Shown in pieces: positions 4,434-27,717 of a DNA stretch of 64,000 nt. Origin of the DNA: an uncultured bacterium (GTDB lineage Bacteria > Patescibacteriota > Minisyncoccia > Phycocordibacterales > CAIZLB01); NCBI GenBank assembly GCA_903848795.1, contig CAINHC010000001.1:14915-78914 (forward strand), written 5' to 3'. The number at the start of each line of letters is the position of its first letter. The stretch's first letter is position 1. The position numbers and the translations under genes are program-made. The notes beneath the pieces were generated by a model, which was not told the origin of the DNA, did not search any database, and saw only the letters and a list, made by a program, of their open reading frames with translations.

Positions 4434-5693
4434 ATGGCAAATAAAAAAGTAGAAATTAGTAAGAAAGTTACAGAAAAAAAAGCGGATGAAAAAGTCGCAA
4501 AAAAAGCTGTGATTAAAGAGCTTGGTAATAAGCCAGCCAGAAAGGAAATGGATGAATTAGAAGATGTAAAAAAAGCTCTCGCTGAAGCACCCGAGGAATC
4601 AATGCCTGAGACTGCAGAAGACGAGGATGATGGAGAAGACGATGAGTCCCCTTCCTCCAAGCCATCTTCAAAATCTTCTTTTGGTTCCAAGAAAAAGGGC
4701 TCGAAAGAAAAGAGTAATGATTCATCGATCAAAGACACTATCGCACAAATCAAAACAAAATTCGGTGACGATGCAATTATGCGTCTTGGAGAAAAACCAA
4801 GAGTTGACGTTAATGCAATTCCAACTGGATCAATCGGACTTGATGCTGCTCTTGGCGTCGGAGGTCTTCCTCGTGGACGTATTATAGAAATATTTGGACC
4901 AGAATCTTCTGGTAAGACAACGCTTTCTCTTCACGTCATTGCGGAAGCGCAGAAGAAAGATGGAATCTGTGCATTTATCGACGCAGAGCACGCAATGGAT
5001 CCAGAATATGCAAAGCGACTTGGTGTTAAGATTGATGAACTTTTAATTTCACAACCAGACACTGGTGAGCAAGCATTGGAGATTGTTGAGAGTTTAGTTA
5101 GATCAGGAAAGCTAGATGTTATTGTCATCGACTCAGTCGCAGCCTTAACTCCAAAGGATGAAATTGAGGGAGATATGGGTGCATCGCACATGGGTAAGCA
5201 AGCAAGATTAATGTCTCAAGCCTTGCGCAAGCTGACTGCAATCGTTGCACGAAGTAAGACTATCGTAATCTTTATCAACCAAATCAGAATGCAAATTGGT
5301 GTTATGTTTGGTAATCCAGAAACAACTCCAGGAGGAAAGGCTCTTAAGTTCTATACTTCAGTTAGATTAGACATCAGAAGAATTGCTCAAATCAAAAAGG
5401 GTGAAGAAATAATGGGAGGACGTGTTCGAGTTAAGGTTGTAAAGAATAAGGTCGCTGCCCCATTTAGACAAACTGAGTTTGATTTAATGTACAACGAAGG
5501 TATTTCAAAGGAGGGAGAGATTATCGCACTAGGCGAGAAGTTGGACATCATCAACAAAAGCGGAACAAGTTATTCTTATGGAGAAGAAAAGCTGGGCCGT
5601 GGATATGATGCAACTCGTCAATTCCTACGAGCTAATACAAAGATTAGTAACGAGATATTAAAGAAGATTAGAGAGCATTTGAAGGAGCTTTAG
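4434..5693 (+). CDS. recA: Recombinase RecA with long charged N-terminal extension
   Basis: [22 protein letters not shown] and GGKALKFY motifs. Confidence 0.98.
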
Positions 5694-5736: not shown

Positions 5737-5764
5737 TTGACAGTCAAAAAGTTTTTGGTAAGCT
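5737..5764 (+). promoter_or_regulatory. Sigma70-type promoter (TTGACA-16-TAAGCT, extended -10 TG) with no downstream ORF
   Basis: TTGACA 5737-5742, TG 5756-5757, TAAGCT 5759-5764. Confidence 0.6.
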
Positions 5765-5770
5765 TTAGAT

Positions 5771-5924
5771 ACCTTTCAGATTAGTAGCAATATTAATCTT
5801 TTCGATTCTGACCTACTCGTTAGGCAGATGACAATTAATTAAGGACAGTTTGGGGAAACCCCGTCGAAAGTATGCAAATACTTTTATTTTAGCGATTAAA
5901 ACACCATTTGCTTGGTGTTTTTTT
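5771..5924 (+). ncRNA. Candidate structured sRNA convergent with PemK/MazF gene
   Basis: Hairpins with GCAA/GAAA tetraloops (5778-5799, 5852-5862, 5867-5884), GACCT...AGGCA hairpin (5810-5826), terminator 5898-5924. Confidence 0.5.
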
Positions 5925-5935
5925 CGTTATATATA

Positions 5936-6331
5936 TTATATATATTTGATAAGTTGAATATATCTATCTATTATATTTTTTAGTTCATCTTCAGGTAAGT
6001 AACCCATAATTTCTTTTAATCTATTTATATCAATAGGTCTTATTTGATTTAAAATAACAAATGACTCATTAAACGAAACCTTTATATACCAGTTACCGTC
6101 ATGTTTTTTAGTTGTCAGCGGTGCCGCCAAGAAGAAATTATCAGAAAATACGTTAATTATAACAACAGGTCTAACCAGATTAGGACCAACCCCATTTTGT
6201 TCATACCCCACATTAATACCAAGATAACACCAAAAAATATCACCCAGTCTTATGAAAGTCTTTTGTTGGGGACATTTGTCTTGAGTATTAAAATCGGTCT
6301 TTATTTCTATCTCCATTTTTGTTCCGCCCAT
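5936..6331 (-). CDS. PemK/MazF-family endoribonuclease toxin (no adjacent protein antitoxin)
   Basis: 'GDIFWCYLGINVGYEQNG...RPVVII...APLTT...ILNQIRPIDINRL' PemK signature. Confidence 0.88.
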   Translation of the reverse strand: MGGTKMEIEIKTDFNTQDKCPQQKTFIRLGDIFWCYLGINVGYEQNGVGPNLVRPVVIINVFSDNFFLAAPLTTKKHDGNWYIKVSFNESFVILNQIRPIDINRLKEIMGYLPEDELKNIIDRYIQLIKYI

Positions 6332-6479
6332 TCTAACAAACCAACCCCGAATTTCCCGTAAAGATTTTCTAAAGAATTTCGAAAGTTTTTATATCCAAAT
6401 TTACCTGCCAAACCAAAACCAAAGAAGATCCGACAGAAGCATGGACATCTCCCCTCTTATGGTCTACAATGGCCATATT

Positions 6480-7043
6480 ATGTATGATTATAATGAAATT
6501 ACAGTAAGAAAGTTTATCGTTTTCGAGGGTGAGCCATATGAAGTTATGAGTTCTCATATTTTCAGAAAGCAAATGAGAAAGCCGGTTAACGACACAAAAT
6601 TAAAAAACTTATTAAACGGTAGAATTGTAGAGCATTCATTCGGTGCAACTGACAAGGTATATCAAGCAGAAATCGACTCAAAGAAAATCAAATTCCTATA
6701 TTCAAATAAGGGAGAATGGTGGTTCTGCGAAGAGAACAATCCAGCAGCTCGTTTTAAGATAGACGAGAGCGTACTTGGAAACAGTGGCAAATTCCTCAAG
6801 CCAAATACCGTGGTTGAGGCCTCAGTTTTTGATGAGCATATCTTTAGAGTAGATCTACCTATCAAGGTTGAACTGGTTGTTAAAGAAGCTCCCCCAGTTC
6901 TAAGAGGCGACTCTTCAAAAAGTGGAAACAAGCTTGTTGTTCTTGAAACTGGAGCAGGACTTAACGTCCCAATGTTCGTAGTTGAGGGAGATGTTGTTAG
7001 AATCAACACAGAGACAGGCGAATATGTAGAGCGAGTTAAATAA
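6480..7043 (+). CDS. efp: Elongation factor P
   Basis: 'LETGAGLNVPMFVVEGDVVRINTETGEYVER' C-terminal signature; likely start ATG 6480. Confidence 0.95.
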   Translation: MYDYNEITVRKFIVFEGEPYEVMSSHIFRKQMRKPVNDTKLKNLLNGRIVEHSFGATDKVYQAEIDSKKIKFLYSNKGEWWFCEENNPAARFKIDESVLGNSGKFLKPNTVVEASVFDEHIFRVDLPIKVELVVKEAPPVLRGDSSKSGNKLVVLETGAGLNVPMFVVEGDVVRINTETGEYVERVK

Positions 7044-9782: not shown

Positions 9783-10931
9783 ATGAAATTCATAAACAGA
9801 GATATAAGCCTAAAAATAAAGAGCCTATCGAATACCCCAGTCATTACAATAACTGGGGCTAGACAGACTGGCAAAACAACCCTGGCTAAGGAACTGTTTC
9901 CTGATTATTTGTATGTTAACCTTGAATTCCCCGACGTAAGAGCTACTGCCAAAAACGATCCGAGGAGCTTTTTACAACAATCAGACAAAATGATAATAGA
10001 CGAGATACAATGGGTACCTGAATTGTTCTCATATATACAAGGTTTTGTAGATGAAGATAAGGATAAAAGATTTGTTCTAACTGGATCAAACAACTTCAAC
10101 CTGCTTCACAAAATATCCCAATCATTAGCTGGAAGAGTCGCTTTGTTTTCCATACCCACACTTTCGCTACATGAGATTAAAACCTCTGATAATCTATCAG
10201 AAAATCTATACCAAAGTATCTACAATGGAGGATACCCTAGAATAATCAATGGCCAAGAAAAACCCGAAGATTGGTATAAGAGTTATGTTCAAACATACCT
10301 GGAAAAAGATATACGAGATACAGCCTCGATACACATGATTGATAGATTTTTTATTTTTTTGCAAATCTTAGCAACAAGAGTTGGGAGTATTATTAATTAT
10401 ACAAGTATCGCAAATGAAGTTCAGGTATCTGCTGGAACAATACGAGACTGGGTTTCCATTCTTGAAGCAAGCTTCATTATATTTAAAATTAATCCTTATC
10501 ACAAAAACATCAAAAAGAGATTGGTTAAATCGCCTAAGGTGTATTTTAACGATACAGGTCTACTGTGTTCCCTGCTTAACATAAAAAGCCCGAGCGACAT
10601 ACAAACACACCCGTTCTCAGGTTTTATATTTGAAAATTATATAATCAATGAATACCTTAAAATGGAATCCTTGGAAAATAATTTACATAGCTTGTTTTTC
10701 TATAGAGACCATGATGGAAATGAAGTAGACCTTATAATAGAACGCGGGGTGGATAAACTAGAAATGTGTGAGCTTAAATTACATAAAACTTTTTCAAAAG
10801 ACTTCACTAAAGGGTTAGAGTTTTTATCTAATGAACTAGCAATAGACGTCACTAAGAATGTAATATACGGTGGTGATGAAAATCAAAAATCAGGAGACGT
10901 CAATATAATTTCTTGGAAAAACATACAGTAA
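9783..10931 (+). CDS. AAA+ ATPase (AAA_14 + DUF4143)
   Basis: GARQTGKT, 'IIDEIQ', 'LTGS', 'KSPKVYFNDTGL', 'EVDLII'. Confidence 0.9.
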   Translation: MKFINRDISLKIKSLSNTPVITITGARQTGKTTLAKELFPDYLYVNLEFPDVRATAKNDPRSFLQQSDKMIIDEIQWVPELFSYIQGFVDEDKDKRFVLTGSNNFNLLHKISQSLAGRVALFSIPTLSLHEIKTSDNLSENLYQSIYNGGYPRIINGQEKPEDWYKSYVQTYLEKDIRDTASIHMIDRFFIFLQILATRVGSIINYTSIANEVQVSAGTIRDWVSILEASFIIFKINPYHKNIKKRLVKSPKVYFNDTGLLCSLLNIKSPSDIQTHPFSGFIFENYIINEYLKMESLENNLHSLFFYRDHDGNEVDLIIERGVDKLEMCELKLHKTFSKDFTKGLEFLSNELAIDVTKNVIYGGDENQKSGDVNIISWKNIQ

Positions 10932-26360: not shown

Positions 26361-26495
26361 ATACTTTCTCTTGCTTATAGGGGTTATTTCATCATTTGCA
26401 CGGCTCAAAATAAGCTTATGGTAGGTTATACAGCGATATTGTAGTATGACACTACAATACTTGCGTCACATTTGTTTATTTGATATACTAAATAC

Positions 26496-27620
26496 ATGTA
26501 TATAAACAGATTTCCAAAAATTGAAGATAAAATAGAGGCCGGCAAAGTGCTAGTTATTTATGGTGCCAGACAAGTAGGTAAATCTTCTCTTGTAAAACAT
26601 TACCTAGGTGGATTAGATGAAAAATACCTATTTTTCAACGGAGAAGACGTAAATGTTCAATCCATCTTTTCCTCTATGAATCTCAAGACACTAAACGAAG
26701 CTATTGGGAACACCAACCTGATCATCTTGGATGAAGCTCAAGTTATACCTAATGTTGGCACATCTCTTAAACTTCTAGTTGATACACACCCAAACCTAAA
26801 AGTAATTGCGACCGGATCTTCATCTTTTGAACTTTCAGGTCAAATTGGAGAACCCCTTGTTGGCAGAATGAATGTCATCACCCTATTCCCTTTTTGGGAA
26901 AAGGAGGTTGCAGAATCTCATTTAAATGATTTTATAGATAACATGGACTTCGCCTTACGCTTTGGTAGATACCCTGCAGTTGTAAAAACACAAATTATTG
27001 ATGAAAAAAAAGAAATCCTAACTAACATAGTCAATGGATATTTGCTCAAAGATATATTAGCCTTTGAAAGGGTTAAAAACTCCAAATTGATTTTAGATTT
27101 GCTCAAACTTCTCGCTTATCAAGTGGGAAGCGAGGTTTCTATTCACGAGATTGCCACCAGATTATCCATAGCGAGGGATACTGTAAATAGATTGCTTAAT
27201 TTGCTAGAACAAAACTTTATTATATTTTCCCTACGTTCTTATGCAAAAAACTTAAGAAATGAGATACGGAAGAAAGAAAAATACTATTTTTACGATCTTG
27301 GAATAAGAAATACTTTAATAGAGAATTTCAACGAGATAAGCACCAGAAATGATATGGGTGCCTTGTGGGAAAATTTCTTAATAGTAGAAAGGATTAAGAG
27401 AAATAAATATATAGAACCATATAAATCAATATATTTCTGGAGAAAATCTACTGGAGCAGAGGTTGATTTTATAGAAATATATAACGACACGATCAGCGGT
27501 TATGAATTCTCCATTAAAGAAAAGAGAAATAACAAATCCAAACAGTCCTGGGTCAATGACTACCCTAAATCTACATGGAAAAATATAAATATGGAAAACT
27601 ATAACGAGTTTATTATCTAA
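26496..27620 (+). CDS. AAA+ ATPase (AAA_14 + DUF4143)
   Basis: GARQVGKS, 'ILDEAQ', 'ATGSSS', 'KYYFYDLGIRN', 'AEVDFIE'. Confidence 0.9.
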   Translation: MYINRFPKIEDKIEAGKVLVIYGARQVGKSSLVKHYLGGLDEKYLFFNGEDVNVQSIFSSMNLKTLNEAIGNTNLIILDEAQVIPNVGTSLKLLVDTHPNLKVIATGSSSFELSGQIGEPLVGRMNVITLFPFWEKEVAESHLNDFIDNMDFALRFGRYPAVVKTQIIDEKKEILTNIVNGYLLKDILAFERVKNSKLILDLLKLLAYQVGSEVSIHEIATRLSIARDTVNRLLNLLEQNFIIFSLRSYAKNLRNEIRKKEKYYFYDLGIRNTLIENFNEISTRNDMGALWENFLIVERIKRNKYIEPYKSIYFWRKSTGAEVDFIEIYNDTISGYEFSIKEKRNNKSKQSWVNDYPKSTWKNINMENYNEFII

Positions 27621-27717
27621 ACCTACAAAACCTCACGGTTTTGTCCATGAGGTTTTGTTATGAGACCTTTACAGGCTCGATCAGGCTCGATTCCGAGTCC
27701 TATATAGAATAGGAAGA

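Follow-up and report, generated by a model that had tools for sequence, protein, structure and literature searches.

MazF is the textbook type II toxin with a protein antitoxin, and orphan copies are usually left unexplained. The locus described here pairs an orphan PemK/MazF gene with a convergent RNA, and it resembles ToxIN, AbiQ, CptIN and TenpIN in having a MazF-fold endoribonuclease, a structured RNA that is likely in excess, and no protein antitoxin. Known type III loci, as set out in the accessible parts of two accounts (PMC8167048, PMC12283969), have a single promoter followed by upstream RNA repeats with pseudoknots, a terminator and then the toxin gene, whereas the present system has two promoters, an RNA that lies downstream of the toxin gene and convergent with it, and apparently plain hairpins. 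The 126-aa toxin is also nearer to MazF than to CptN, ToxN or AbiQ, and ToxIN membership was rejected because operon layout, repeats and toxin type all fail. The toxin is like MazEF, PemIK and EndoA of type II in its sequence, its fold and its catalytic Arg/Thr positions; unlike them, it has no upstream antitoxin gene, is read from its own nearly leaderless promoter and in most family members carries an extra W-x3-K segment, and type II MazEF membership was rejected because the protein partner is missing.

The Rfam pemK motif (RF02913), which a preliminary description of this DNA had raised as a lead, resembles the present RNA by a name taken from nearby pemK genes only: none of 151 genomes of the phylum gave a match above its cut-off of 34.8 bits, and the best match in the genome of the window (G000; the window is the whole 64,000-nucleotide stretch analysed) scored 15.1 bits and lay away from the locus. 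The search for other known RNA families proposed there was equally fruitless, since Rfam returned no relevant match for the window, 20 CPR loci, or the own-genome, Campylobacterota and metagenome loci, and PADLOC gave no consistent family. The DUF3800-associated RNA motifs, in the accessible portion of Weinberg 2017 (PMC5737381), involve a different protein family and different RNA structures. No published account of a PemK/MazF-RNA family was found in the literature searched, which lay mostly outside subscription papers and the Weinberg 2017 supplement. The reading we favour, with a probability of roughly 0.55, is that the RNA neutralises a classical MazF by binding the toxin protein, as type III antitoxins do; that it is an antitoxin by either a protein-binding or an antisense route we consider quite likely.

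The toxin gene and its facing RNA between recA and efp

The components of the locus are collected in Table 1. The preliminary description had the toxin gene without an adjacent protein antitoxin, facing a promoter, four hairpins and a terminator, and this layout was borne out. recA is convergent with the gene and efp divergent, the gaps between the three contain no ORF longer than 35 aa, and no adjacent co-transcribed protein antitoxin was found in them. The promoter TTGACA-16-TAAGCT with its extended -10 is present at 5737-5764; the -10 is degenerate, matching the consensus at 3/6 bases, which is why a consensus scan did not list the promoter, and it reads TAAACT in all three same-genus orthologues of the locus. 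The hairpins and terminator are present in 5771-5924, a region that folds better than 200/200 shuffles. The U-run of the terminator stops at 5924, 11 nt from the toxin stop codon (5936), and the RNA and the toxin ORF do not overlap in the window; any overlap with the toxin mRNA would depend on where its 3' end lies. A cruder terminator scan marked 5898..5924 in both directions, and this terminator may end the toxin mRNA too, its minus-strand U-run being shorter.

Table 1. Features of the recA-efp locus (window positions) and other loci of G000 with the same layout
Feature	Position	Strand	Basis or remark
recA, left flank of insertion site, convergent with toxin	4434..5693	+	Pfam scan
RNA promoter, sigma-70-type (TTGACA, 16 nt, extended -10)	5737..5764	+	sequence scan; TTGACA 5737-5742, TG-n-TAAGCT 5756-5764; spacing and position shared by 85/96 PemK loci
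Predicted small RNA, ~155 nt	5771..5924	+	+1 inferred 7 nt past -10; fold z -4.1
Module A (5' domain)	5771..5844	+	hairpins 5778-5799 and 5804-5831, basal stem
Module B, cognate core	5845..5884	+	leader 5845-5851, GC hairpin 5852-5862, hairpin 5867-5884
Intrinsic terminator of RNA	5898..5924	+	terminator scan, plus strand only
PemK/MazF-family endoribonuclease gene (predicted), 126 aa	5936..6316	-	PF02452, E 1.4e-10
Extended -10 of toxin's own promoter	6330..6338	-	short leader, without canonical -35
11-bp direct repeat, 2.9 copies, candidate activator box	6359..6390	-	repeat and promoter-matrix scans
efp, right flank, divergent from toxin	6441..7043	+	Pfam scan
NYN / DUF3800 / 157-aa loci (L234, L237-L239)	G000 C1:2531-3236, C1:8114-8621, C37:36371-37001, C27:16417-17161, C37:19332-19806

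By sequence and fold the toxin is a MazF, and endoribonuclease activity is predicted for it. All 71 aligned family members match PF02452, and none of the 71 matches the ToxN Pfam models. MazF was the top structural match (Foldseek, VIA-align), the best solved relatives being EndoA and S. aureus MazF; the structural Z was 13-14 for MazF, 10.3 for CptN and 5.8-7.0 for ToxN/AbiQ, so that the ToxN relationship first suggested gave way to one with MazF/EndoA. R49 is invariant and T68 is kept, and the two align with R25 and T48 of B. subtilis MazF (EndoA), positions with catalytic roles. The gene had been given a start at 6331; the gene stands, with its PF02452 match, and its start codon is probably ATG 6316, because the toxin -10 covers 6335-6330, the orthologues begin at 6316 and the database entry has 126 aa. 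The window toxin sits on a long branch, and the N-terminal W-x3-K segment of most family members is missing from its 11-member subclade. The single-sequence fold of a full-length member was a poor model (pLDDT 61.6, below 50 at the N-terminus). The PemK frames of L037, L073, L100 and L102 run on into long C-terminal extensions (fusions or lost stops), that of L037 presumably resembling a pyrophosphatase.

The RNA had been called non-repetitive, which stands in that a repeat search found no tandem repeat in 5771-5924, and falls in that it comprises two non-identical family modules fused in tandem. Its hairpin caps are GCAA (5778-5799), GAAA (5852-5862) and GCAA (5867-5884), and it also forms a CUG-A-CCUA/UAGG-CAG hairpin; the middle hairpin folds as GGGG-AAA-CCCC from the window sequence alone, its GNRA register being taken from the orthologues. 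A CCUU/AAGG basal stem (5772-5775 paired with 5841-5844) encloses module A and was present in 4/4 minimum-energy folds, and a U.U plus tandem G.A motif closes the module's hairpin 5804-5831. The homologues of module A are the RNAs of another toxin clade, among them that of a paralog some 12 kb from it on this contig, with which it aligned at a score of 58 against a shuffle maximum of 47 (0/500 as high); in this clade an invariant GAU...UGA flanks a helix in which 4/5 pairs compensate (13 rows). Module A is partly deleted in G006 and G001.

Module B, with a single-stranded leader at 5845-5851, is on these comparisons the window toxin's own module and nearly invariant, as about 56 nt of the RNA core show few differences across four genomes whose toxin dS is 0.5-2.4. 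At another locus (L252), with a toxin 64% identical, module B occurs alone and begins at +1. Within its own subclade, no pair of module B showed compensatory change, and 43/500 shuffles pair equally well. Judged by alignment, the length of the window RNA reflects a local fusion of two modules, most family RNAs being about 45-70 nt. In a crude search for H-type pseudoknots with no control, the longest loop-to-single-strand helix was 4 bp in the window RNA and 3 bp in module B, and helices of at least 5 bp occurred in 3/91 family RNAs. Hammerhead and K-turn readings of the RNA were rejected by eye, the core being mismatched in the one case and the C-stem missing after the G.A pairs in the other.

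Toxin and RNA occupy the recA-efp site in 3/6 same-genus genomes and one metagenome contig (L251), and the link between them is kept in the five copies of the locus. recA leads directly to efp in G004 and G005, from which both toxin and RNA are absent, while the gap in G002 holds two different PemK genes, both of them paired with a short RNA that has the same promoter. Toxin and RNA have been gained and lost jointly here, as an accessory two-gene cassette. Over the last 105 codons of four toxin sequences, of which one has an internal stop, dN/dS was 0.08-0.28 and dS 0.5-2.4; the G001 copy is interrupted by a stop. The toxin and the RNA core are both under purifying selection. Two side observations concern other genes of the window: the N-terminus of RecA is extended, unusually, by about 98 aa (4434-4730), lysine-rich then acidic and varying among relatives, and at about 26495-27710 an AAA-family gene, whose start resembles that of the AAA_14/DUF4143 gene at 9783-10931, has hairpins, a terminator and a convergent promoter-like site behind it.

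Linkage of PemK genes and small RNAs in CPR genomes

Relatives of the toxin numbered 121 in 36/61 genomes, with up to 8 per genome, and 96 of the 121 were analysed, those left out being mostly the lowest-scoring and those at contig edges. The convergent RNA, whose conservation at CPR PemK loci the preliminary description had proposed as a check, proved to be a family-wide feature. A strict convergent sigma-70 promoter lay 15-200 nt past the stop of 85/96 PemK/MazF genes (median 59 nt), against 61/774 control ORFs of the window's own genome, or 41/455 at a gap of at least 60 nt, the control matches including the four intact PemK genes; a relaxed search, with no control, gave 93/96. The tail-to-tail pairing of a toxin with a separately promoted structured RNA thus holds for the five locus copies and 85/96 family loci, and it extends to Campylobacterota. 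A reverse search of GTDB used a toxin-blind pattern of promoter and RNA start/leader only: a convergent PemK gene lay within 200 nt in 93 of the first 120 matches listed, and in the other 27 the first hairpin formed in 12 and failed in 15. The matches came mostly from Patescibacteria. The toxin profile gathered 745 clusters (50% identity, E < 1e-30), known from the protein match alone. A first metagenome scan gave no matches, and viral contigs yielded no confirmed relatives by protein pattern and no module B patterns. On a quick tree of 76 proteins, with poor resolution, RNA type tracked toxin clade; as kin share labels, this shows co-inheritance only, rather than co-evolution.

The family RNAs have a common plan. 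Position +7 after the -10 is A in 81/93 loci, and a leader of about 6 nt followed by a GC hairpin of 3-5 bp with four bases in its loop was found in 69/91 distinct RNAs, compared with 11.7% of shuffles; a second hairpin comes next, and a third, over the toxin stop, is often present. The stems of the first hairpin swap among GGG/CCC, GGC/GCC, GCC/GGC, GAC/GUC and others, and its 3' arm, which the search pattern did not select, pairs in 88/93 PemK-linked matches. An A5 covariation result was set aside as circular, its rows having been chosen for having the hairpin. Of the GNRA/UUCG caps, 78 were on the RNA strand, against a single one on the toxin strand. The RNA opens with ACA in 43/91 RNAs versus 5/113 control promoters, kin being non-independent, and 48/91 start otherwise; several MazFs cleave directly before ACA, according to the accessible part of PMC7781912.

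The toxin genes are served by promoters of their own, nearly leaderless and preceded by an 11-bp repeat, the -10 sitting 4-8 nt ahead of the start in 56/78 toxins versus 22.8% when shuffled. An upstream coupled small ORF occurred at 6/78 loci, none of them alike by eye, and PF04014 (MazE) and PF01402 (RHH) had no match in G000, which is 98.8% complete. It could be argued that the hairpins belong to the DNA level or are incidental (mobile palindromes or junctions of the cassette, or a promoter acting through transcriptional interference only) and that a weak promoter, a distant protein or the N-terminal segment restrains the toxin, as the toxin promoter without a canonical -35 and a cassette that comes and goes at recA-efp would allow. 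We regard this as very unlikely, given that RNA-type tetraloops are confined to one strand, the structure is fixed relative to +1, MazE and RHH matches are missing from G000 and the subclade without the N-terminal segment still keeps the RNA core; moreover, a discrete 77-nt RNA is seen on Northern blots of a relative, as reported in the accessible part of PMC3656092.

A promoter matrix trained on the PemK promoters of 30 other genomes selected 18 sites in G000, a count that has no shuffle control and includes all four intact PemK genes plus a truncated one. Other sites precede an NYN gene, a 157-aa gene and its look-alike, and genes that we take to be RhuM-like and DksA/TraR-like, and one lies at about 3772 of the window, ahead of the gene upstream of recA. 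From the matrix scan, these sites are a candidate activator regulon of orphan nucleases. In G000, a tail-to-tail promoter with hairpins was also observed downstream of three NYN genes and one DUF3800 gene, as assigned by Pfam, and of the 157-aa gene, the latter with two flanking copies of a different folded RNA candidate; the RNAs behind the NYN, DUF3800 and 157-aa genes had no Rfam matches. To the left of the window (L234, C1:2500-9300), NYN, PemK, NYN and PemK genes form an array on one strand, each with its own convergent promoter and hairpins behind. Three PemK-type RNA genes with intact promoters have no facing toxin (L235:651, L236:721 and L002:1814-1870, on C20, C11 and C22 of G000) and are probably leftovers after toxin loss.

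The linkage and structure data also fit with an RNA that serves the nuclease as a cofactor, guide or stored product in a complex with another job, for example target selection or sensing. Multi-module RNAs and the same layout behind NYN and DUF3800 genes agree with this, and the DUF3800-associated RNAs are described as having no known function in the accessible portion of PMC5737381. We nevertheless consider such a role quite improbable: the nuclease retains its catalytic residues, the RNAs show no variable guide segment, the three toxin-less RNA genes of G000 are what would be expected of leftover antitoxins, and an RNA antitoxin has been reported on plasmid pVir, in accounts accessible in part.

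Relatives outside CPR and the action of the RNA

A CPR member used as query found 7 phage and 15 plasmid records, all from Campylobacterota, and a convergent -10 with a hairpin RNA was present in 4/5 of the records examined; the fifth, a broken gene on a C. coli plasmid, lacks a clear RNA unit. pVir0047, on plasmid pVir of C. jejuni 81-176, matches PF02452 and is 27.8% identical to a CPR member. CjrA/CjpT was reportedly published by Shen et al. 2016 (PMID 27291507) as a 'type I' toxin-antitoxin system. CjrA on pVir is called an antisense type I RNA antitoxin in the accessible parts of PMC10470494 and PMC7826846. The 77-nt RNA CJpv3 (pVir 31119-31043, minus) is Northern-positive and has a TSS step of 16164 versus 28 for the toxin mRNA, according to the accessible part of Dugar 2013 (PMC3656092); by these coordinates it ends 4 nt short of the toxin ORF (ORF end 31038), and from plasmid, strain and position CjrA is probably CJpv3. 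The CJpv3/pVir0047 pair is like the CPR pairs in its orphan PemK toxin, convergent promoter, +7 start and hairpin RNA before the stop, as far as the published mapping goes; unlike the CPR RNAs, CJpv3 has 77 nt, a G start and a different sequence, and it has been described as type I antisense if it is CjrA. The convergent RNA of CJIE4 (RM1221) has a TSS step of 74, weaker than the toxin's 221 (PMC3656092, same portion), and the mapped starts place the 5' ends of both Campylobacter RNAs 7 nt after the -10, with G. The CJIE4 MazF protein was found in 5/5 isolates, and the prophage has no MazE gene, in the accessible part of PMC3995785.

In gut metagenomes, a related, longer PemK subfamily (L262-L307) has one to three same-strand small-RNA units directly behind the gene. 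The leader-plus-hairpin motif lay downstream on the toxin strand at 29/32 distinct loci, mostly in two copies, and never reversed; convergent promoters were found at 0/32 loci, promoters lying on the toxin strand instead, and the units had no Rfam matches. Homology between the gut RNAs and the CPR RNAs is putative.

Much of this bears on a type I cis-antisense mechanism, in which the toxin mRNA would overrun its stop, the 3' ends would pair with the RNA and RNase III would destroy the duplex. The convergent layout at 85/96 loci speaks for it, as does the 3'-overlap that is the usual Gram-positive type I layout in the accessible part of PMC8167048. G000 encodes RNase III, pVir CjrA, which may be CJpv3, has been called antisense type I, and the RNA is in large excess over the toxin mRNA on pVir, both on partly accessible sources. 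A crude scan found a toxin-direction terminator at 23/91 loci and a missing or unclear one at 68/91, which implies that many toxin mRNAs could overlap the RNA. However, we judge this mechanism unlikely. Protein binding is favoured because antisense pairing needs neither a conserved leader, a fixed hairpin nor a non-canonical motif, and so leaves the near-invariant leader/linker, the small clade-specific hairpin and the U.U/G.A motif unexplained. Pure antisense is further disfavoured because single-stranded parts are conserved though cis-antisense pairing is automatic, and because the leader is kept whether it is internal, as in the window, or at +1, as in L252. Antisense cannot apply to the gut RNAs, because RNA and toxin share a strand. 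Two points rest on partly accessible sources: the CJIE4 toxin protein is detectable in growing cells, so antisense fits poorly there, and CJpv3 stops short of the toxin ORF, which also disfavours pure antisense. The window also has a terminator, possibly two-way, between the ORF and the RNA core.

Neutralisation by protein binding could work as follows. The RNA would be made constantly and in excess from a near-consensus promoter, and the toxin from a regulator-controlled one. The single-stranded leader, of ACA type like the starts of MazF cleavage products, would lie in the RNA channel of the MazF dimer, with the hairpins docked beside it; in short family members the leader would be the 5' end of the transcript and leave MazF nothing to cut, whereas in the window RNA it would be internal, behind the captured second module. 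Were the RNA lost, for example on phage shut-off, or the toxin induced, the nuclease would be freed and translation would stop. The product-mimic detail is not universal, because the Campylobacter RNAs start with G and 48/91 CPR RNAs are without ACA. Several observations count against protein binding: the window -10 is degenerate, the RM1221 RNA has a weaker TSS than its toxin, module B is without compensatory change, and the window toxin, which is on a long branch, is without the N-terminal segment and carries a stop in G001.

Significance for MazF and for CPR genomes

A wider proposal, which we put forward tentatively and hold to be somewhat doubtful as a whole, is that a classical MazF is switched off by a separate small RNA whose 5' end mimics an uncleavable product, and that such RNAs would form a large RNA-antitoxin class bridging type II MazEF and type III ToxIN. 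In CPR this would be one arm of a single inducible orphan-nuclease regulon (PemK, NYN, DUF3800 and others), in which every nuclease is controlled by a tail-to-tail RNA of its own, and RNAs with several modules, such as that of the window, would neutralise more than one paralog.

RNA gating of a classical MazF would be new. If the toxins are gated in this way, an antitoxin can be assigned to hundreds of protein clusters, canonical MazF comes under type III control, and the question of where ToxIN came from can be tested. The C. jejuni plasmid pVir would provide a cultured example with a mapped RNA, and, on the accessible parts of the published accounts, its system may need to be moved out of type I. 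If true, RNA gating would explain how CPR genomes of 0.6-1 Mb carry up to eight MazF genes and zero MazE.
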